Origin: Bacillota bacterium
GTDB taxonomy: Bacteria; Bacillota; Dehalobacteriia; UBA4068
Direction: 5' to 3'
Assembly: GCA_031553915.1 (NCBI GenBank)
Contig: JAVBKT010000002.1
Location: forward strand, 148,109 to 212,108
Length of the DNA: 64,000 bases
Under the pieces are notes generated by a model. That model did no database searches, was not told the origin of the DNA, and worked only from the letters and a program-made list of their open reading frames with translations. The position numbers and the translations under genes were made by a program. This document shows, piece after piece, positions 2,917-49,763 of this stretch (within the stretch, counting starts at the first letter, position 1; the number at the start of each line of letters is the position of its first letter).

Positions 2917-3717
2917 TTATATTCCTTGATATAATGAATTATTAAGCACAAATAATAATATGATCACCAGACTATTCCATGCCATATGGGCAATGGCATT
3001 AACCCAAAGATTACGGTATTTATCATAAAGCCAGGTGAAGCCTAAGCCACCGATAAAGATAGGCAAAAAGGTCCAGATGTTCATATGCGCTAAACTAAAA
3101 GCAGCGGCACAGAGGATAATTGCTATTGGCCGTTTAAAATAATGCAATAGTGACGGATAGAGGAAGGCCCGAAATAGCATTTCTTCAGCCACTGGCGCGG
3201 CAAAACAAATGAGCAATACCAGCATGATAATTTCCACGCTGCTGGTAGTCTGACCAAAAAGATTGACCACCGTTTGGCTAGAGGCAATTTTGCCGGGAGC
3301 CAGCAGATCAACAATAATCGCTCCCATGGTATTCATCAGATAAAAAAGTATGCCAAGCGGGATAGCAACAAGCGCTATCTTCACGGGCGGCTTTGTCAAA
3401 CCCAAAGCCCGGGGCTGGTGTTTAAGAGCAATACAGGCGATCAGTATCGGCAAAATAATCCAAATGCTGTCCTGCACCAGCATACCAATAATCTGCATTG
3501 GCACCTCTTGCATTCCGGTCAAATACAAGAGGCTGGCCAAGGAACTGACAAAAATGCCGCAAAAATACACTGCCAGCGGTATCCACAGCGGCCAAATCCG
3601 CGGCTGATAGGACGGCAAAAAATCATCCGGCCGCCACTCTTCCCTCTGTTCAATTGCCGAGTCCTGTAGATTTTCGCTTTGTTTTGGCTGATTTGTTTCT
3701 TCCATACCCAATATCAT
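2917..3717 (-). CDS. CPBP family intramembrane metalloprotease (CAAX protease / Abi-like)
   Basis: Polytopic membrane protein with the EExxxR motif (VAEEMLFRAFLY) and FSLAHM, typical of Rce1/CPBP proteases. No clear RBS, so the start is uncertain. Confidence 0.7.
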   Translation of the reverse strand: MILGMEETNQPKQSENLQDSAIEQREEWRPDDFLPSYQPRIWPLWIPLAVYFCGIFVSSLASLLYLTGMQEVPMQIIGMLVQDSIWIILPILIACIALKHQPRALGLTKPPVKIALVAIPLGILFYLMNTMGAIIVDLLAPGKIASSQTVVNLFGQTTSSVEIIMLVLLICFAAPVAEEMLFRAFLYPSLLHYFKRPIAIILCAAAFSLAHMNIWTFLPIFIGGLGFTWLYDKYRNLWVNAIAHMAWNSLVIILLFVLNNSLYQGI

Positions 3718-3830
3718 ACCATATTTGCGCCTAACTGGCCAGATAAAAATAGTCCGTAATTTTTAAATATCCTCTTGACTCTCCCCCTGGCGGAGATTGT
3801 AGACTGAGTACATGAAAGGAGATCTGCACT

Positions 3831-4655
3831 ATGTTTCGCATCGGAGAATTTTCCAAAATGAGCCTGACTACGATCAAAACCCTCCATTATTATGATGAGG
3901 TAGGACTGCTCAAACCTGCTCATATTGACCCCTTTACCGGATACCGCTTTTATACTACAGAACAGCTTATTCTTCTGCACAAAATCCAATCATTTCGCCA
4001 AATTGGCCTGTCTATTGATGAGATCCGGCAATTAATTTCCGGTATTGCTGCTGACTTTATCATGCAAAAAAGAAAGAGCGAGCTGCTTGGGGAAATCTCC
4101 GCTAAACAAGAGCAACTCTCCCGGATTGAATTTATTCTATCTGGAAAAGAGGAGGATTATTTTATGAACTATGAAGCTACCATCAAGGATTTACCCGAGT
4201 ATATTGTCTATTCAAAACGTTTGGTGGCACCGAGCTATGCGGATTACCTCACCATCATCCCTGCTATTGGCCAAGCGGTTGCTGCAAAATATCCGGATCT
4301 TAAATGCACTGCGCCGGAATATTGTTGCGTCGTCTATCTGGAACCCGAATATAAAGAAAAGGACATTCATATCGAGTTTTTTGAAGCTGTTGAACAGATG
4401 AAAGAAAATTTTGATGATATCGTTTTTAAGAAGCTGCCCCAGACAACCGTTGTTTCGGTATTGCATAGAGGCCCTTATCAACAAGCAAAAGGCCCAAGCC
4501 TGTCTGACGCTTACCTTTTCCTCGCCAAATGGATAGAAGATAATGGTTACACAATTACCGGCCACCCCCGGGAAAGCTATATCGACGGTATTTGGAACAA
4601 AGATAATGCAGAAGATTGGCTGACCGAGGTGCAATTCCCCATCAGCAAGATATAA
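3831..4655 (+). CDS. MerR family transcriptional regulator with C-terminal GyrI-like effector-binding domain (BmrR/Mta-like)
   Basis: N-terminal MerR HTH (FRIGEFSKMSLTTIKTLHYYDEVGLLKP...GYRFY), a coiled-coil linker, and a C-terminal ~150 aa GyrI-like domain. Confidence 0.85.
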   Translation: MFRIGEFSKMSLTTIKTLHYYDEVGLLKPAHIDPFTGYRFYTTEQLILLHKIQSFRQIGLSIDEIRQLISGIAADFIMQKRKSELLGEISAKQEQLSRIEFILSGKEEDYFMNYEATIKDLPEYIVYSKRLVAPSYADYLTIIPAIGQAVAAKYPDLKCTAPEYCCVVYLEPEYKEKDIHIEFFEAVEQMKENFDDIVFKKLPQTTVVSVLHRGPYQQAKGPSLSDAYLFLAKWIEDNGYTITGHPRESYIDGIWNKDNAEDWLTEVQFPISKI

Positions 4656-4684
4656 AAAAGAAGCCCAAAAGGGCTTCTTTTTTA
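4654..4684. terminator. Rho-independent terminator (bidirectional) between MerR gene and typA
   Basis: Hairpin AAGAAGCCC-AAAA-GGGCTTCTT followed by TTTTT, with an A-run on the other side. Confidence 0.6.
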
Positions 4685-4686
4685 AA

Positions 4687-6513
4687 CTATTTTTCTCTGC
4701 TAGAAACGCGCAGCCGCTCTGTTCTGCTTAAAATCTTTTTGCGTAAGCGTAAGTTCTTCGGGGTGATTTCCAGCAGCTCATCATCTGCCATAAACTCCAA
4801 GCACTGCTCCAGCGACAGTTCTCGCGGCGGCACCAGACGCAGCGCGTCATCAGAGCCGGAGGCGCGGACATTGCTCAGCTGTTTCTTCTTGCAGACGTTA
4901 ACGGAAATATCCTCATTTTTGGGGCTGACGCCAACTATCATCCCTTCATAAACTTTTACGCCGGGGTTAATAAACAGCTGGCCCCTTTCCTGCGCTTTGA
5001 ACAAGCCATAGGTCACAGCTACACCGTTTTCCCAGGCCACCAGCGAACCGCTTTCGCGTTTGGTGATTTTCCCCTGGAACTCCTGATATTCAGCAAAAAC
5101 AGAGCCCATAATGCCCTCGCCGCAGGTATCAGTCAAAAACTCATTGCGATAGCCAAACAGACCGCGCGCCGGAATCAGATATTCCGCTTTCATCCTTTTC
5201 CCGGATGGCATCATATCCAAAAGCTGGCCTTTGCGCCGACCCATTTTATCAGCGACAAAGCGGAAACTATCTTCCGGCACATCAACATGCAGCCTTTCCA
5301 TTGGTTCATAAATTTTGCCGTCAATTTCCTTAAACAAGGCCTTGGGCGGTGAGACAGCAAACTCATAGCCCTCGCGGCGCATCGTTTCAATCAAAATTGC
5401 CAGATGCATCTCCCCGCGGCCCAGCACACGAAAAGCCTCTGTGCTGTCTGTTTCCAGTACCCGTAGAGACACATCCTTGAGCAGTTCGCGGAACAGCCTG
5501 TCACGCAGCTGGCGGGAGGTCACATATTCGCCTTCCTGTCCGGCAAAGGGGCTGTCATTGACGGAGAAAGTCATTTCTACCGTTGGCTCACCCACCTGGA
5601 CAAAAGCAATCGGCTCAATATTATCAGTATCGCAGACCGTGTCGCCGATATTAATATCCTCAATGCCGCTAAAGCAAACAATATCCCCGGCCAGGCCTTC
5701 TTCAACCGGAACCCTGTTTAAGCCCTCGATGGCAAAGAGGTTGTTGATCTTGCCCTGATACGGCTGTTTATCGTCATAATAATTGGTGACCATCACTTGT
5801 TGGGCAGCTTTAATTGAGCCCCGGTCTACCCGTCCAATGCCGATTCTGCCAACAAAGCTATTATAGTCAACAGAAGACACCAGCAATTGCAAAGATGAGT
5901 CAGCGTCAGCGATCGGCGCGGGAATATGCTTAACAATCGTATCAAAAAGCGGGTTGAGATCGCTTGGCTCATCATCCGGCTCCACAGAAGAAAGCCCGCG
6001 TTTTGCTGAACAATAAATAATCGGGCTGTTTAGCTGATCCTCTCCGGCATTAAGCTCTTCCAAAAGCTCAATAGTCTCCAGGGCTACATCCAGCGGGCGC
6101 GCCTCCGGGCGGTCTATTTTATTGACGACAATAATCACCTTGTGATTCATCTCCAAAGCCTTTTGCAGCACAAATCTGGTCTGAGGCATCGGCCCCTCAA
6201 AAGCGTCAACCAGCAGCAGCACGCCATTGACCATTTTCAAAATGCGCTCCACCTCACCGGAAAAATCAGCATGGCCGGGGGTGTCGACAATATTAATTTT
6301 CATCCCGTCACGAAAAACCGCGGTGTTCTTGGCCAGAATGGTGATGCCTTTTTCACGTTCCAAATCATTATTGTCCATCACCCGCTCTTCTACTGCCTGA
6401 TGGCTGCGAAAAGCGCCGCTTTGCTTGAGCATTTGGTCGACTAAAGTCGTTTTACCATGATCAACATGGGCAATAATGGCGATATTACGAATATTAGATA
6501 TTTCTTGTAACAT
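4687..6513 (-). CDS. typA: Translational GTPase TypA/BipA
   Basis: 608 aa protein. N-terminus is [20 protein letters not shown] with GTPase G1-G4 motifs and EF-G-like domain organisation. Confidence 0.95.
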
Positions 6514-8891: not shown

Positions 8892-9083
8892 CTATTGCTT
8901 TTCTGCGGGGCTCTGGCCATGGCATATGGAGGAGCCAGAACAACATCCGCAGTCGCTTCCGCAGCTGCAGGTAGTTCCTTTTTTGCGGTCGCGCACAATT
9001 TTTCTGATAACCAAAGCTAGGATAGCAATAAGAATAAGACTGATAATAATTGTTGCCAGGTTATTTATGATAAATTCTAACAT
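8892..9083 (-). CDS. FeoB-associated Cys-rich membrane protein (FeoC-like, 63 aa)
   Basis: One TM helix followed by GTTCSCGSDCGCCSGSSIC. RBS GAGGTG with 6 nt spacing. Lies immediately downstream of feoB. Confidence 0.7.
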   Translation of the reverse strand: MLEFIINNLATIIISLILIAILALVIRKIVRDRKKGTTCSCGSDCGCCSGSSICHGQSPAEKQ

Positions 9084-9103: not shown

Positions 9104-11242
9104 TTATGCTTTATTTGCTGTTTTTATCATACCACTGCTATTAGTATTCCGTCTAGCCATTAAATAAACAATTAGAGCCACCAGGATTATCGCTGCCACA
9201 GTGCCGATGCCGAAAGCGCCGCCAGTGAACAAAGAACCAATCTGGAAGATAATCAAGGCAATTACATAGGCGAAAACGGTTTGATAGCCAACCGCGAACC
9301 AGGTCCATTTGGCGCTGTTCATCTCACGTCTGGTAGCGCCGATAGCGGCAAAGCATGGGGCGCACAGCAGGTTGAAGACAAGGAAGGCAAAGGCAGCCAT
9401 TCCGGAAAAATCAGCGGCCATCATGCTCCAAAATTCCATGCCGTCTTCAGCAACTTCAGCAAAGCCATAGAGAATACCCATGGTAGCAACAACGGTCTCT
9501 TTGGCAATCAGCCCGGTGAAAGTGGCCACTGTGGCCTGCCAGGTGCCAAAGCCAAGCGGTACGAAAATAAAGGCAATCGCTGTACCAATTACCGCCAGCA
9601 AACCATCGTTAATATCTTCCACCATCATAAACTGGCCGTCAACAAAGCCAAAGCTCATCAGGAACCAGATCAGAATAGAAGAAAGCAAAATGATGGTACC
9701 GGCGCGTTTGATGAAAGACCAGCCGCGTTCCCACATGCTGAGCAGCACTCTGCTGACCCGGGGCATATGATAGGCAGGCAGCTCCATGACAAAAGGAGCA
9801 GGCTCACCCTTGAACATCTTGGTTTTTTTCAAGATAATACCGGAAACGATAATCGCAGCGATGCCGATGAAATAGGCGCTTGTCGCTACCCACCAGGAAC
9901 CATCGAACAGGGCGCCGGCAATCAAAGCAATAATCGGCAGCTTGGCGCCGCAAGGCATGAAAATAGTCGTAATAACAGTCATGCGGCGGTCGCGCTCGTT
10001 TTCAATAGTACGGGTAGCCATAATGCCGGGAACAGCACAACCGGTAGAAATTAACATCGGGATAAAGGATTTGCCGGAAAGACCAAAGCGGCGGAAAATG
10101 CGGTCCATGATAAAGGCCACGCGCGCCATATAACCGCAGCCCTCCAGGAAGGCCAGGAAGATGAACAAAATCAACATCTGCGGCACAAAACCAAGCACAG
10201 CGCCGACGCCGGCGATAATACCGTCGACAACCAGCCCGGATAACCACGGCGCAGCATTGACGCTTTCCAGCCAGCCGCTAACCGCGGGAGGGATAATCTC
10301 GCCAAACAGGACATCATTGGTCCAACCGGTCACCCAATCACCCACGGTGGTGATGGAAACATAATAAACAAGAGCCATCACTGCGGCAAAAATCGGCAGA
10401 GCCAACCAACGGTTGGTGACAATGCGGTCAATTTTATCCGAGCGGCTCATCAGATCTTTACTCTTTTTTTGATAACTGTCTTTTATAATAGAAGTAATAT
10501 ATGTATAGCGTTCATTGGTAATGATGCTCTCGGCATCATCATCCATTTCTTGTTCAACTTTGGCAATTATGGCCTCATTTGCATTATTGAGCGGCATCTG
10601 GGCAATAATTTTTTCATCACGCTCAAAAAGCTTAACCGCATAGAATCTTTTGAAATTATCAGCCACTGATGCAGGAAGACTGCTTTCTAGCTCAGCCAGA
10701 GCAGCTTCTACACTTGGACCAAATTTATGCTGCGGGGCTTTGCCTGTTGTTGCAGCCAAGGCAATGGCAGCGTCAGCTGCGGCAGCAATGCCGGTGCCTT
10801 TTAAGGCGGAAATCTCCACCACCTGACAGCCAAGAGCATCAGACAGCTTATGGGTATCAATGCTATCCCCTGCTTTGTGTACTATGTCCATCATATTGAC
10901 TGCAACCAGTACCGGGATGCCCAGCTCCAATAATTGCGTAGTTAAGTAGAGGTTTCTCTCCAAATTACTGCCGTCAACAATATTGACAATCACATCCGGG
11001 TTTTCGGTCAATAAATAATTTCTGCTGACAACTTCTTCCAATGTATATGGAGACAGCGAATAAATACCGGGAAGGTCGATCAGTCTTGCGTCTTTATGAC
11101 CTTTGATTTTACCCTCTTTTTTTTCAACGGTAACGCCGGGCCAGTTGCCTACATACTGGTTGGCGCCGGTCAAAGCATTAAAAAGTGTAGTTTTACCACT
11201 ATTCGGATTGCCCGCTAAGGCAATATTAATTGACATTGTCAT
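9104..11242 (-). CDS. feoB: Ferrous iron transport protein B
   Basis: 712 aa protein. N-terminal G-domain (IALAGNPNSGKTTLFNALTG) followed by polytopic permease domains. Confidence 0.95.
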   Translation of the reverse strand: MTMSINIALAGNPNSGKTTLFNALTGANQYVGNWPGVTVEKKEGKIKGHKDARLIDLPGIYSLSPYTLEEVVSRNYLLTENPDVIVNIVDGSNLERNLYLTTQLLELGIPVLVAVNMMDIVHKAGDSIDTHKLSDALGCQVVEISALKGTGIAAAADAAIALAATTGKAPQHKFGPSVEAALAELESSLPASVADNFKRFYAVKLFERDEKIIAQMPLNNANEAIIAKVEQEMDDDAESIITNERYTYITSIIKDSYQKKSKDLMSRSDKIDRIVTNRWLALPIFAAVMALVYYVSITTVGDWVTGWTNDVLFGEIIPPAVSGWLESVNAAPWLSGLVVDGIIAGVGAVLGFVPQMLILFIFLAFLEGCGYMARVAFIMDRIFRRFGLSGKSFIPMLISTGCAVPGIMATRTIENERDRRMTVITTIFMPCGAKLPIIALIAGALFDGSWWVATSAYFIGIAAIIVSGIILKKTKMFKGEPAPFVMELPAYHMPRVSRVLLSMWERGWSFIKRAGTIILLSSILIWFLMSFGFVDGQFMMVEDINDGLLAVIGTAIAFIFVPLGFGTWQATVATFTGLIAKETVVATMGILYGFAEVAEDGMEFWSMMAADFSGMAAFAFLVFNLLCAPCFAAIGATRREMNSAKWTWFAVGYQTVFAYVIALIIFQIGSLFTGGAFGIGTVAAIILVALIVYLMARRNTNSSGMIKTANKA

Positions 11243-11323
11243 ATCCTCCTCATTAGTTAGAAAGAACTAACTATCTTTCAAAAAAATATATGGCTTGCGC
11301 CAAAAATGTTTTGATATTATGTA

Positions 11324-11545
11324 TCAACTGATCTCAATCATCTCAGCGTCGGCTTTGCGCAAGGATAACTCATAACCCCTGACATTAATCTCAACCGGGT
11401 CGCCAAGAGGCGCTACCTTGCGTACAAATATCTGCACGCCTTTAGTGATACCCATATCCATAATACGGCGCTTAATGGCACCCTCACCATGGAGCTTCAC
11501 TACGGTTACTGTTGAGCCAACAGCAACATCCTTTAATGTTTGCAT
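11324..11545 (-). CDS. feoA: Ferrous iron transport protein A
   Basis: 73 aa FeoA/SH3-like protein (LKDVAVGSTVTVVKL...RRIMDMGITKG...GDPVEINVRGYELSLRK). Confidence 0.85.
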   Translation of the reverse strand: MQTLKDVAVGSTVTVVKLHGEGAIKRRIMDMGITKGVQIFVRKVAPLGDPVEINVRGYELSLRKADAEMIEIS

Positions 11546-11560
11546 GACTTCTTTGCTCCT

Positions 11561-11770
11561 TTAAACCATAATTTTATTGGCCATCTCTTGGCTAATCGCT
11601 ATCCTGGAATCTTTAACATTGACAATAACATTGCCGCAGCTTTTGGAAACCAAAGTAACATCACTTCCGACCACAAAACCAAGTGATGTCAAAAAATGGC
11701 GAATATCATCTTTGCCGCCAACTTTTTTTATTGATTTTTTTTCTCCGGTTTGTGCCATTGGCAAAGGCAT
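11561..11770 (-). CDS. feoA: Ferrous iron transport protein A (second FeoA paralog), 69 aa
   Basis: FeoA-like (GEKKSIKKVGGKDDIRHFLTSLGFVVGSDVTLVSK...GNVIVNVKDSRIAI). Start moved to the ATG preceded by AGGAGTGATAAT. The track ORF runs upstream from a TTG with no RBS. Confidence 0.7.
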   Translation of the reverse strand: MPLPMAQTGEKKSIKKVGGKDDIRHFLTSLGFVVGSDVTLVSKSCGNVIVNVKDSRIAISQEMANKIMV

Positions 11771-11812
11771 ATTATCACTCCTATTCGCTCTGGATAACTG
11801 CACATTCCAAAA

Positions 11813-11900
11813 GTTAGCCTTTTCTAACCAAATATATGTTAGCATAAGCTAACTTTTTTGTCAAGAGCTTTTTGCAATTTTCATTTTGTATGTTATAATT
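11813..11900. promoter_or_regulatory. Divergent promoter region carrying two GTTAG(C)...(G)CTAAC palindromes, likely metalloregulator operators
   Basis: Perfect 16 bp palindrome GTTAGCATAAGCTAAC at 11838-11853 fills the 17 bp spacer of a minus-strand promoter (TTGACA-17-TAACAT) reading into feoA. A second inverted repeat GTTAG-N6-CTAAC lies at 11814-11829. The plus-strand promoter TTGCAA(11873-11878)-16-TATAAT(11895-11900) reads into the DtxR-family gene. Confidence 0.45.
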
Positions 11901-11934
11901 TATAAAATAGTTATTTTCTGACAAAGGAGCATTG

Positions 11935-12312
11935 ATGGTTATGGAAATATATAAATCTGCAGAAGACTACCTAGAGACTATTTTAGACCTCACCAAACGC
12001 AATGGTTCTGTACGCTCAATTGATATTGCCAATGAGCGTGGTTTTTCTAAACCAAGCGTTAGCGTAGCAATGAAAAACCTGCGCCAAAACGGCTATATCT
12101 CAGTTGACGCAGATGGCTTAATCACTCTTGAGCCACAGGGCTTAGCCATTGCCAAAAAGATCTACGAACGGCATGTCGTCCTCAGAAATTGGCTCATTTC
12201 TCTGGGGGTTGACGCTAAGGTTGCGGCCGAGGACGCCTGCCTGATTGAGCATGATCTTAGTGCGGAAAGCTTTGAAGCTATCCGCGATTTTGTGACAAAA
12301 AACCCTAGCTGA
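11935..12312 (+). CDS. DtxR/MntR family metal-dependent transcriptional regulator
   Basis: About 125 aa. Winged HTH (DYLETILDLTKRNGSVRSIDIANERGFSKPSVSVAMKNL) and metal-binding/dimerisation region. RBS AAAGGAG lies 5 nt upstream of ATG 11935. The track start is TTG at 11932. Confidence 0.85.
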   Translation: MVMEIYKSAEDYLETILDLTKRNGSVRSIDIANERGFSKPSVSVAMKNLRQNGYISVDADGLITLEPQGLAIAKKIYERHVVLRNWLISLGVDAKVAAEDACLIEHDLSAESFEAIRDFVTKNPS

Positions 12313-12347: not shown

Positions 12348-13307
12348 ATGCAAAAAGTCTTGTTATGCATTGTGCTGCTACTGCTCGTCCTTAGCCTCTG
12401 CCTTGCCGCTTGCAGCGATAACAATGAAAACGCCATCACCCGCCTTACCATAGCCACCGGGTCTCCTTCCGGCGTTTATTATCCTTATGCCGGCGCCATG
12501 CAAAAAGTTATTGAAGCAAACCATGATAATATTAAAATTGTTATTAATGCCACCGGCGCCTCCGCTGAAAACATCCACCTGATTGCAGCAGGCCATGCTC
12601 AGCTGGCTATTGTACAAAACGATGTTATGGACTATGCCTATCATGCTACCAATACCTGGACCGAAGAAGCAGTCACCGGTTTCATGACCTTGATGACCCT
12701 ATACCCGGAATCCTGCCAGCTGATTGTGCCGGCTGATTCTGATATTTATTCAGTAGAAGACCTGGAAGGCAAACGTGTCTCTACCGGCGCTATTGGCTCT
12801 GGGGTGGAGGCCAATGCTACACAAATCCTGGAGGCGTATGGCTTAAGCGTTTCTGATATCACACAACGCAACCTTAGCTTTAGCGCCTCTGCGGAAGCAA
12901 TGAAGGACCGCACCCTTGATGCAGCCTTTATTACCTCAAGCACGCCCAATACCGCTATTACTGATTTGCAAACTGTCCGCGGCTTAAGATTTATCAGCCT
13001 CGATGATGATAAAATTGACGCTTTGATCGCAGCCTATCCTTTTTATACCAAAGTTACTCTGACTGACGCGGATTATAGCTTCATCAGCGAGCCGGCCAAT
13101 ACCGTGGCAGTACGGGCAACCTTGATTTGCACTCCGTCGCTTTCTGACGATGTTGCCTACAATATCGTCAAGACTATCATCGAGAATAAAGATACCATTG
13201 CTCATGCCAACGCCGCGTTTATAAATATTAACGACGCTGTTCAAGGCACGAGTATTGATTTTCATCCCGGCGCGCTTAAATATTTCCAGGAGCAGGGTGT
13301 TCTATAG
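12348..13307 (+). CDS. TAXI-family TRAP-transporter solute-binding lipoprotein
   Basis: Signal peptide with lipobox LAAC. Matches the TAXI family (LTIATGSPSGVYYPYAGAM..., ATGASAENIHLIAAGHAQLAIVQNDV, EGKRVSTGAIGSGVEANATQILEAYGL). Confidence 0.8.
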   Translation: MQKVLLCIVLLLLVLSLCLAACSDNNENAITRLTIATGSPSGVYYPYAGAMQKVIEANHDNIKIVINATGASAENIHLIAAGHAQLAIVQNDVMDYAYHATNTWTEEAVTGFMTLMTLYPESCQLIVPADSDIYSVEDLEGKRVSTGAIGSGVEANATQILEAYGLSVSDITQRNLSFSASAEAMKDRTLDAAFITSSTPNTAITDLQTVRGLRFISLDDDKIDALIAAYPFYTKVTLTDADYSFISEPANTVAVRATLICTPSLSDDVAYNIVKTIIENKDTIAHANAAFININDAVQGTSIDFHPGALKYFQEQGVL

Positions 13308-13316
13308 TTTAGGCAG

Positions 13317-13868
13317 ATGACTACAGCTATCAATAACAGCAAAACAAAAAAATACAACCACAAGCGGATTACAGTTATGGTACTCTGCCTTGTGGTTGTA
13401 TTTTTGTTTAGCCTTATTCTTCTCATCAAAGATCAATATTTGCTGATCACGGATAGTGATAGTGGCAAAATCCTTTTTTGCGAAAAAGCAGCGGATGAAG
13501 AAACCTTCAGCATTGCTTTTGTGCATTCTGTGAATAAAAGCTTGGTGGAAGACGTTTATCTCATCCGGGATGGCTCGATTATGCTCAGCTCGTCCTTTTT
13601 TACCGCCTTTGGCGCGGGCATGCCCACTGCTGCGGGAGCAGATCAAACCTTTTGCACAGATGACGGGATGATGCATATTTCCGGCTATGATTGGCCGCTG
13701 GAAGACTTGCGCTATAGTGTAGGGCGCAACGCAAACCATACTCTAAAGCTGCGAGATCAAACCATTCCCCTGAATACTCTGGCTGAACCAGGCACATCCG
13801 TTAGCTTCAGCCTACGCGAATATCCATCGCTTTTTTCGCTTTTGCATTTGCGACCACATAGAATATAA
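13317..13868 (+). CDS. DUF1850-like membrane-anchored protein of the kind usually found beside TAXI TRAP systems
   Basis: 183 aa. N-terminal TM helix, then a soluble domain. Starts 10 nt after the TAXI gene stop. The DUF1850 assignment comes from recall of family features, not a search. Confidence 0.55.
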   Translation: MTTAINNSKTKKYNHKRITVMVLCLVVVFLFSLILLIKDQYLLITDSDSGKILFCEKAADEETFSIAFVHSVNKSLVEDVYLIRDGSIMLSSSFFTAFGAGMPTAAGADQTFCTDDGMMHISGYDWPLEDLRYSVGRNANHTLKLRDQTIPLNTLAEPGTSVSFSLREYPSLFSLLHLRPHRI

Positions 13869-26270: not shown

Positions 26271-26357
26271 TGGTGCGGGTGACAGGACTTGAACCTGCAC
26301 AGAGCAATCTCCACTAGAACCTGAATCTAGCGCGTCTGCCAATTCCGCCACACCCGC
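26271..26357 (-). tRNA. tRNA-Leu (anticodon CAG)
   Basis: The reverse complement gives GCGGGTGTGGCGGAATTGGCAGACGCGCTAGATTCAGGTTCTAGTGGAGATTGCTCTGTGCAGGTTCAAGTCCTGTCACCCGCACCA. Features are a 7 bp acceptor stem, anticodon loop TTCAGGT, a long variable arm, a GTTCAAGTCC T-loop, and an encoded CCA. Confidence 0.85.
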
Positions 26358-49364: not shown

Positions 49365-49640
49365 TTTATAAACAAAAAAAACTCCCACCCCATCCAAGGG
49401 GCGAGAGACATCCCGCGGTACCACCCAAGGTTCACGATGAAGCTCATACCTCACCGCCTTAGCAAGTCAAAACCTTCTTGACTCATGCGTGATAACGGAC
49501 GCAACACGTCGCAGCCCACATTAAGCAGTGTTTGTTTGCTGCGCAGCTCCGAAGATGTATTCACCACTTGTTCCCATGCGCCTCTCAGCAGCCGGCAGCT
49601 CTCTGTCTGGTACCTCAAATGATTACTTGTTCTTCATCAT
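49365..49640 (-). promoter_or_regulatory. T-box riboswitch leader with a probable Tyr (UAC) specifier
   Basis: On the minus strand, Stem I opens with GGCGAUGAUGAAGAACAAGUA, which resembles the glyQS leader. The upper helix AUCAUUUG pairs with CAAGUGGU. The 3' side of the specifier loop is GAA-UAC-A, followed by UCUUC pairing with GAAGA. The conserved T-box sequence AACCUUGGGUGGUACCGCGGGA follows, then a terminator hairpin and U8. A candidate promoter TTGACA-17-TAGCAT lies around 49675-49703. Confidence 0.75.
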
Positions 49641-49763
49641 CGCCTTTTGATATGTTGATATAAGCCACTTCTGGCTCAGTTTGAATGCTATCATAACCTT
49701 TTTTGTTTGTCAAGCATCTGGGGCAAAATAAAACCCCCTTTCTACCTGGAGCATAGAAAACTT

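Follow-up and report, generated by a model that had tools for sequence, protein, structure and literature searches.

Candidate operators for metal-dependent repression of a feoA-feoA-feoB operon by a two-domain DtxR/MntR-type regulator in a Bacillota bacterium

The feo Locus

The ferrous-iron uptake (Feo) locus described here lies in a 64,000-nt stretch of DNA (the window; 47.7% G+C) on contig JAVBKT010000002.1 of a Bacillota bacterium from the lineage Dehalobacteriia, UBA4068. The locus contains three copies of a palindromic motif, GTTAG-N6-CTAAC, which are predicted to be operators of a divergently encoded regulator of the DtxR/MntR family; all evidence is computational and comparative, and gene families were assigned by Pfam and NCBIfam/TIGR profile scores.

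The operon is read from the minus strand and begins with two genes of the Pfam FeoA family, feoA1 (11561-11770; 69 amino acids (aa), E = 1.4e-15) and feoA2 (11324-11545; 73 aa, E = 1.3e-20). These are followed by feoB (9104-11242), the product of which is 712 aa when counted from ATG 11242, matches Pfam FeoB_N, Gate and FeoB_C, and scores 565.7 bits against TIGR00437 (cutoff 315.65); the final gene of the operon (8892-9083, minus strand) encodes a 63-aa FeoB-associated Cys-rich membrane protein (PF12669, E = 1.2e-13). The features of a Feo system are present by Pfam, namely a FeoB with an N-terminal GTPase, Gate and FeoB_C domains, together with FeoA. On the plus strand, a gene at 11935-12312 encodes a 125-aa, two-domain DtxR/MntR-family regulator (Fe_dep_repress and Fe_dep_repr_C). 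A first-pass annotation had called FeoA, FeoA and FeoB on the minus strand and a DtxR-family regulator on the plus strand, and the profile scores agree. The longest open reading frames probably overcall both starts (11935-11943 for the regulator, 11234-11242 for feoB); based on the spacing of ribosome-binding sites and the N-termini of homologs, the regulator probably starts at ATG 11941, giving 123 aa, while ATG 11236, 8 nt 3' of AGGAGG, is the more likely start of feoB.

Candidate Operators and Promoters

Exact copies of GTTAG-N6-CTAAC occur three times in the window, all at the feo locus, compared with 0.065 expected from base composition; none appeared in 30 shuffles of the window. Elsewhere in the 64 kb there is no copy with one mismatch, and the nine copies with two mismatches fall below the approximately 30 expected by chance. 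The window also holds no homolog of DUF2325, DUF3793 or flavodoxin, the other genes that carry the motif in related genomes; it contains three sites and no further target.

The first site, O1, is GTTAGCATAAGCTAAC (11838-11853), and the second, O2, is GTTAGCCTTTTCTAAC (11813-11828); they are 25 bp apart from start to start, leaving a gap of 9 bp. A consensus scan recovers the feo promoter reported in the first-pass annotation: on the minus strand, a TTGACA -35 hexamer (11864-11859) is separated by a 17-bp spacer from TAACAT (11841-11836), with a TG upstream that makes an extended -10 element, TGCTAACAT (TGn plus TAACAT; 11844-11836). The right half of O1 provides the TAAC of the -10 hexamer, and its GCA provides the TG of the extended element. 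Transcription starts were placed from consensus and conservation, approximately 7 nt past the -10 hexamer; on this basis O1 would span roughly -24 to -9 of the feo promoter, and O2 would cover roughly +1 to +16 of the predicted transcript. The sequences and coordinates of both repeats are as first annotated; however, the description of O1 as a perfect 16-bp palindrome exactly filling the 17-bp spacer needs correction, as only its 6-bp arms are perfect (the central ATAA is partly self-complementary, giving 14 of 16 symmetric positions) and the 16-mer takes up 12 bp of the 17-bp spacer and reaches 4 bp into the 6-bp -10 hexamer.

The third exact site, O3, was overlooked in the first-pass annotation; it is GTTAGAAAGAACTAAC at 11256-11271 (GTTAGTTCTTTCTAAC on the feo strand) and lies in the feoA2-feoB spacer, just 5' of the ribosome-binding site of feoB. 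A plus-strand promoter-like site for the regulator gene, TTGCAA-16-TATAAT with an upstream TG (11872-11899; consensus scan), stands back to back with that of feo; no operator overlaps it, and the loci show no conservation in this part of the intergenic region.

Conservation in Related Loci

Species-representative genomes were scanned with an alignment of regulator homologs, yielding 80 related loci; the loci were sampled around regulators and feoB genes, and the apparent regulon is therefore biased to their neighborhoods. Every locus in which the regulator is divergent from feoA-feoA-feoB (L007, L015, L017, L030, L038, L043, L046, L048, L063, L076 and L079) has both promoter sites and a third site 5' of feoB, and the same three-site arrangement is seen in L082, which was reached through protein P0050 and belongs to a very abundant gut species (>1000 contigs). 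The position of O3 is kept in 14 loci.

When 13 intergenic regions are aligned, a single block of approximately 65 bp is conserved and the remainder is unalignable. The block reads [A/G]GTTAG-N6-CTAACC-N3-TATAT-GTTAGCA-N4-CTAAC-N4/5-TTGTCAAG; its GTTAG/CTAAC cores and the TGTCAA are invariant or nearly so, and on the feo strand it corresponds to TTGACA-17-TAACAT with TGn before TAACAT, the TATATGTTAGCA block of the extended -10 element being conserved. O1 is conserved in 12 of the 13 feo-linked loci, the core of O2 is invariant in all 13, and so is the TGTCAA of the -35 element. The FeoA1 proteins of these loci are just 54-65% identical to that of the window, so the block represents a genuine phylogenetic footprint. 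Loss of the palindrome 5' of feo in relatives was a refuting condition named in the first-pass annotation; instead, both sites, the 25-bp spacing, the -35 hexamer and the extended -10 element are retained in 13 diverged loci.

Around regulator homologs, 464 kb of DNA contain 43 exact sites (0.43 expected), including ten pairs exactly 25 bp apart. An independent sample was drawn with the forward feoB quantitative PCR primer of a Faecalibacterium duncaniae study as the probe, which gave 120 metagenome stretches with feoB genes of several gut Clostridia; these contain 76 exact sites in 870 kb (0.52 expected), and their feo promoters take the form TTGACA-N5/6-GTTAG-N6-(C)TAA.., with a strong palindrome 24-36 bp further on. 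Helical phasing between the operators was considered and rejected: O1 and O2 are 25 bp apart in the clade of the window and 24, 28, 30 or 36 bp apart elsewhere, and the O1-O3 distance ranges from 536 to 813 bp. Some contigs that carry the Clostridia-type regulator are labeled 'Escherichia coli' (L056) or 'uncultured Bacteroides sp.' (L076, which also has a feo locus); these are probably mis-binned metagenome-assembled genomes.

The Regulator Protein

The regulator consists of a winged-helix domain (PF01325; residues 7-58, 38.8 bits against a cutoff of 26) and a metal-binding/dimerization domain (PF02742; residues 67-121, 45.2 bits against a cutoff of 27). The chain ends at residue 125 with no FeoA match, and thus the protein does not have the SH3/FeoA-like C-terminal domain of DtxR/IdeR. 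Its NCBIfam scores are highest for MntR but are below both MntR cutoffs (NF008273, 89.7 vs 153; NF003025, 63.3 vs 138), and the DtxR equivalog NF053665 gives 22.3 bits vs a cutoff of 290; the protein falls outside both the DtxR/IdeR subfamily and MntR. As it scores far below every curated NCBIfam equivalog, it is best assigned, from its sequence, to a distinct and undescribed branch of the DtxR/MntR superfamily, one that has two domains and is predicted to use single-dimer operators. Members of this branch are very numerous: each of the 8000 candidates scored was significant, and certain clusters occur on 1000 or more gut-metagenome contigs. Genomes of Lachnospiraceae and Oscillospiraceae hold the nearest homologs (<=70% identity). 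At two loci another DtxR-like gene of 147-148 aa, also divergent, adjoins the feo operon or the regulator: L094 (4691-5405; Faecalibacterium-type, helix TKPSVVRIMNLL) and L057 (2360-2803). In L094 the feoC terminator, 12 nt and GTTAGCTTTGGATAAC come before this gene.

The predicted metal ligands are D11, E14, H80, C102, E105 and H106, of which C102, E105 and H106 are invariant among homologs. Five of the six positions of the binuclear site of MntR (Asp8, Glu11, His77, Glu99, Glu102, His103) fit; the Glu99 position is the invariant Cys. The primary-site set of DtxR/IdeR (Met10, Cys102, Glu105, His106) is present apart from Met10, which is replaced by Asp or Asn in this branch, and the ancillary E83 and H98 are absent. 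The predicted ligand set is thus MntR-type plus an IdeR-type cysteine. One homolog, at L061 (3001-3375), has Met at the Met10 position (SAEMYLE) and with it the full Met/Cys/Glu/His set.

The candidate operators resemble the target of one IdeR dimer. Crystal structures of IdeR on its 19-bp box show a single CCTAA repeat recognized per subunit, with repeats 1 and 3 occupied by the same dimer; a designed half site can also be bound by one IdeR dimer. In the DtxR/IdeR box TTAGGTTAGGCTAACCTAA, these two repeats read TTAG-N6-CTAA, which is identical in core and spacing to the present sites; the likeness of half-sites proposed in the first-pass annotation therefore holds and extends to the spacing. 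The thymine-contacting Ser and Pro of the recognition helix are conserved (S38, P40). Val/Ile takes the place of Gln43, the residue that contacts the first C of the repeat, a base that is unconserved in the motif. Across 82 homologs the recognition helix (SKPSVS[VI]AMKN) hardly varies, whether or not feo is adjacent, which suggests one shared specificity, with targets elsewhere in those genomes that have no nearby sites.

Along with the two domains, the half-site core and the intra-dimer spacing, actinobacterial DtxR/IdeR shares the DNA-contacting Ser and Pro, the primary-site Cys-Glu-His and, as predicted here, the logic of a metal-loaded repressor placed over the -10 element of iron-uptake genes. 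The systems differ in site architecture: two dimers, offset by 5 bp, bind the four interleaved CCTAA repeats of the 19-bp box, whereas the present sites are 16 bp with two repeats, would take one dimer each, and lie separately, 24-36 bp apart. MntR of Bacillus subtilis and E. coli, a Mn2+ sensor, has the same two-domain build (approximately 125-155 aa) and shares the five binuclear positions as D/N, E, H, E and H; however, it has Glu99 in place of the Cys, and its targets are mntH or mntABC rather than feo and flavodoxin operons.

Proposed Repression Mechanism

The GTTAG-N6-CTAAC elements are probably operators through which the adjacent DtxR/MntR-type regulator represses feo in a metal-dependent manner; the identity of the binding protein is inferred from sequence, co-location and family resemblance. 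When loaded with metal, most probably Fe2+, one dimer of the regulator would bind O1 over the spacer and -10 element and block binding of RNA polymerase, while a second dimer on O2 would block open-complex formation or promoter escape. Occupancy of both sites would shut off feoA-feoA-feoB and the FeoB-associated gene; when metal is scarce, the apo-protein would leave and the operon would be expressed. O3, past a hairpin and T-run and before feoB, may provide a further metal-dependent brake on feoB, by roadblock or by looping to O1/O2.

The first-pass annotation favored a DtxR-type regulator over Fur, which is consistent with the DtxR/IdeR-like half-sites and with the intergenic region between feo and the regulator gene (11771-11934), where no Fur box (7-1-7 TGATAATNATTATCA) was found at up to 3 mismatches. 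The nearest Fur-like match, with 3 mismatches, is at the feoA2 stop codon (11312-11326); the palindrome TTGATA-cataa-TATCAA (11311-11327), which overlaps this stop codon and is the closest to the Fur 7-1-7 box, is unconserved in other loci. The same annotation raised possible autoregulation and placed the divergent regulator approximately 80 bp away; the distance agrees with the reading frame start at 11935, 81 bp from the palindrome, but autoregulation finds no support in the window, where the regulator promoter overlaps no site and the center of O1 is approximately 60 bp upstream of the predicted start of the regulator transcript. In other genomes a site lies over the -10 element or the leader of the regulator gene (L057, L061), and autoregulation therefore appears to be lineage-dependent and is not indicated here.

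Several observations weigh against repression of feo by an iron-loaded regulator of this type. By sequence the regulator is nearer to MntR than to DtxR/IdeR, and among solved structures it matches MntR proteins best (E. coli 2h09, E = 5e-16) and DtxR/IdeR less well. The M10 position is Asp in this protein and Asn in most homologs. Approximately 55 of the 80 regulator homologs have no site within 3 kb, and so the link between protein and motif rests on co-location at the remaining loci and on family resemblance. Finally, PgMntR of Porphyromonas gingivalis, the sole characterized protein with the same D-C-E-H set, is activated by Mn2+ and controls a FeoB-type Mn transporter (PMC4805248).

Regulon and Effector Metal

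In all fetched DNA, 113 of 118 distinct exact sites lie <=200 bp 5' of feoA, feoB, DUF2325, DUF3793, regulator or FeoB_associated genes. A DUF2325-DUF3793-flavodoxin operon carries one or two sites at and 3' of its promoter in L004, L011, L021, L046, L048 (e.g., 3557-4987), L061 and L065, and stand-alone FeoB_associated genes that are divergent from the regulator have one exact site between promoter and start (L062, 2703-2855; L073, 2701-2871). The use of flavodoxin in place of ferredoxin is a classical way of sparing iron, and the genes that bear the motif point to an iron-sparing regulon. No Mn importer gene (NRAMP or Mn ABC) was seen among the 118 sites, which come from regulator and feoB neighborhoods and not from whole genomes.

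The feoAABC operon of F. duncaniae A2-165 has been shown to be repressed by ferrous sulfate and to be co-induced with a flavodoxin gene; neither a regulator nor an operator was named (PMC10781979). This operon has the same order as that of the window, feoA-feoA-feoB followed by a small Cys-rich gene, and Faecalibacterium-type loci share the motif family. In loci that match both F. duncaniae feoB primers (GC 0.56-0.61), two exact sites follow a TTGACA-17-TAAGAT promoter and precede a DUF3793 gene directly 5' of feoA1, and a TTGACA-N6-GTTAG-N6-TAAACT promoter precedes feoA1 itself. These loci differ from that of the window in having their exact sites 5' of the DUF3793 gene, in an O1 with a single intact half-site at the feoA1 promoter, in the absence of O3, and in that a regulator homolog is not adjacent. 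Quantitative PCR in Roseburia, where feoB was induced at both low and high iron, is uninformative.

The effector metal is likely to be Fe2+, as judged from the feo and flavodoxin regulon, the one homolog with Met10, and the Fe2+ repression of feoAABC in F. duncaniae. A less probable reading, although the foremost of the alternatives, keeps the same architecture but has the regulator sense Mn2+, or both metals, with FeoB importing manganese as in the PgMntR/FeoB2 pair of P. gingivalis; this is considered unlikely. The top structure and profile matches to MntR would fit with Mn2+, as would the name given to the protein by some sources, 'DtxR family Mn-dependent transcriptional regulator'. MntR-type sites also have Asp/Asn at the position of DtxR M10, and the ligands D/N-C-E-H equal D19, C108, E111 and H112 of PgMntR, a Mn-activated protein that binds the promoter of a FeoB-type Mn transporter (PMC4805248). 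PgMntR is further linked to the present system by its FeoA domains and its FeoB-family target; it differs in that two FeoA domains are fused to its C-terminus and are essential, whereas the window has two separate, divergent feoA genes, and in that Fe2+ releases the protein from DNA (PMC4805248). Against sensing of Mn2+ are the motif before flavodoxin operons, the lack of a Mn importer gene among the 118 sites from regulator and feoB neighborhoods, the score well under the MntR equivalog cutoff, and the ferrous sulfate repression of the homologous F. duncaniae operon. Cys102 also counts against it as the IdeR-type sulfur ligand tied to Fe2+ selectivity; in a review, the sulfur ligands M10 and C102 are thought to favor Fe2+, and MntR has Asp/Asn and Glu at these positions.

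Other Explanations for the Palindromes

It is very unlikely that the palindromes serve another transcription factor encoded elsewhere while the adjacent DtxR-like gene regulates something else. The many homologs with no nearby site would be accounted for in this way, and the second divergent DtxR-like gene of Faecalibacterium-type feo loci (148 aa, 3' of feoC) adds to the candidate binders. However, both half-site and spacing match the DtxR/IdeR family, and the feo-regulator intergenic region has no Fur-like box; the divergent pairing of regulator and feo is accompanied by sites in 13 loci, and where feo is not adjacent, sites are found directly 5' of the regulator (L055, L057, L061, L062, L073, L078). 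The invariance of the recognition helix across homologs is also consistent with one shared motif.

It is also very unlikely that the elements work chiefly at the RNA level, as stem-loops of the feo transcript (a 5'-end stabilizer, an attenuator or a translational element), and not as DNA bound by protein. O2 and O3 are transcribed, the common O3 variant CTAAT would still pair as G-U, and nine sites have at least 4 extra arm pairs (1.7 expected) with arms that differ in sequence; in the window the O3 spacer can also pair with the feoB Shine-Dalgarno sequence. However, O1 lies 5' of the predicted start and is equally conserved, a 5-bp A/U-rich stem would be marginally stable, and the Shine-Dalgarno pairing is not kept in the other loci. 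In contrast to usual RNA hairpins, the sites vary in their 6-nt center and not in their 5-bp arms, and complementarity of the flanks is at background overall, with a small tail of longer arms only; extended palindromic arms were accordingly rejected as evidence for RNA structure, most sites being at background. Invariant arms with a variable center are, at the level of sequence, the signature of a DNA palindrome bound by protein and not of an RNA stem. Rfam gave no match in the feo region, with the whole window searched at the gathering threshold and 11100-12000 at E <= 1.

Chance origin of the inverted repeats in an AT-rich promoter can be dismissed, for even though a longer pattern at up to 2 mismatches is not significant alone (5 found, 2.3 expected), the three exact copies lie at a single locus at far above expectation, and their position, spacing and sequence are conserved across many genomes.

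The Third Site and Terminator-Like Hairpins

On the feo strand, the feoA2-feoB spacer has the order stop codon, GC-rich hairpin of locus-specific sequence, T-run, operator GTTAG-N6-CTAA[T/C], ribosome-binding site and feoB. In the window the hairpin belongs to a weak terminator-like element (11280-11302, minus strand) composed of TGGC-GCAA-GCCA (11302-11291), TATA and a run of seven T (11286-11280), which stops 8 nt short of O3; other loci usually have a much stronger hairpin. Runs of at least four T stop 8-10 nt ahead of O3 in 11 of the 14 loci and 13 nt ahead of it in one; two loci have no such run. A hairpin and T-run 8-12 nt before a site are seen in three contexts, namely the feoA2-feoB spacer, the leaders of DUF2325/DUF3793 (second site) and, in the Faecalibacterium-type, after the feoC terminator; examples include the window, L015, L038, L048, L079, L082, L011, L021 and L094, among others.

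For all sites, the distance from GTTAG to the nearest upstream run of five or more T peaks at 8-12 nt (68 of 111 cases). A hairpin precedes 41 of 63 such T-runs vs 141 of 600 control T-runs in the same loci, and the median folding energy is -9.9 vs -3.75 kcal/mol, although the counts are inflated by related sequences. An internal feoB promoter at O3 was considered and rejected: a -35-like hexamer is present only in L079 and L046, no acceptable -10 element is conserved, and in the window the start would fall in or after the ribosome-binding site. The 88-nt feoA2-feoB spacer of the window folds at -19.4 kcal/mol (z = -3.2), and UCUUUCU (11259-11265; the O3 spacer and the following C) can pair with the feoB Shine-Dalgarno sequence AGGAGGA (11244-11250); this pairing is specific to the window and is not found in orthologous spacers.

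Protein roadblocks stop RNA polymerase approximately 12-16 nt before the obstacle. It is possible, although doubtful, that the repressor doubles as a metal-dependent roadblock that turns weak intrinsic terminators conditional; a dimer on O3 would hold the active site of the polymerase on the U-tract, so that termination would be efficient when iron is plentiful and leaky when it is scarce. Looping of O3 to O1/O2 across 536-813 bp is an equally simple alternative. A literature search gave no published natural precedent for a device in which an operator follows a terminator. More speculatively still, the SH3/FeoA-like domain that is absent from the regulator may be provided in trans by the free-standing FeoA proteins.

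Other Features of the Window

A gene for a TAXI/NMT1_3-type solute-binding protein and a DUF1850 gene (12348-13868) begin 36 bp past the regulator stop codon. This neighborhood is shared only with an identical Logan contig (L081) and not with the other loci, and so these genes are probably unrelated to the metal system. The sole Rfam matches in the window are a T-box leader (49394-49649, minus strand; 101 bits) and one transfer RNA gene (26274-26357, minus strand).

Significance

The proposed system works like DtxR/IdeR control of iron uptake, an ordinary metal switch, but one that is undescribed for common gut Clostridia; a search of the literature, which did not cover curated regulon databases, found no DtxR-feo regulator, motif or regulon described in Clostridia, nor an association of DUF2325 with flavodoxin. 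For the dominant gut Clostridia that produce butyrate (relatives of Eubacterium rectale, Roseburia, Blautia and Faecalibacterium), the control of iron is essentially uncharacterized; the work on iron-repressed feoAABC, in which no regulator is named, was the only study found. The present analysis supplies a testable regulator, the precise operator GTTAG-N6-CTAAC and a compact predicted regulon of feo, FeoB-associated Cys-rich genes and the DUF2325-DUF3793-flavodoxin operon, whose DUF2325 and DUF3793 genes are of unknown function. The hybrid Asp/Asn-Cys metal site is relevant to the determinants of selectivity for Fe and Mn in the DtxR family. If functional, the placing of an operator just past a terminator would be an unusual means of putting termination under the control of a DNA-binding repressor; if the roadblock is true, it would set the FeoA:FeoB ratio and add a second layer of iron control. 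The predicted regulon could also help in reading iron status from gut metatranscriptomes.

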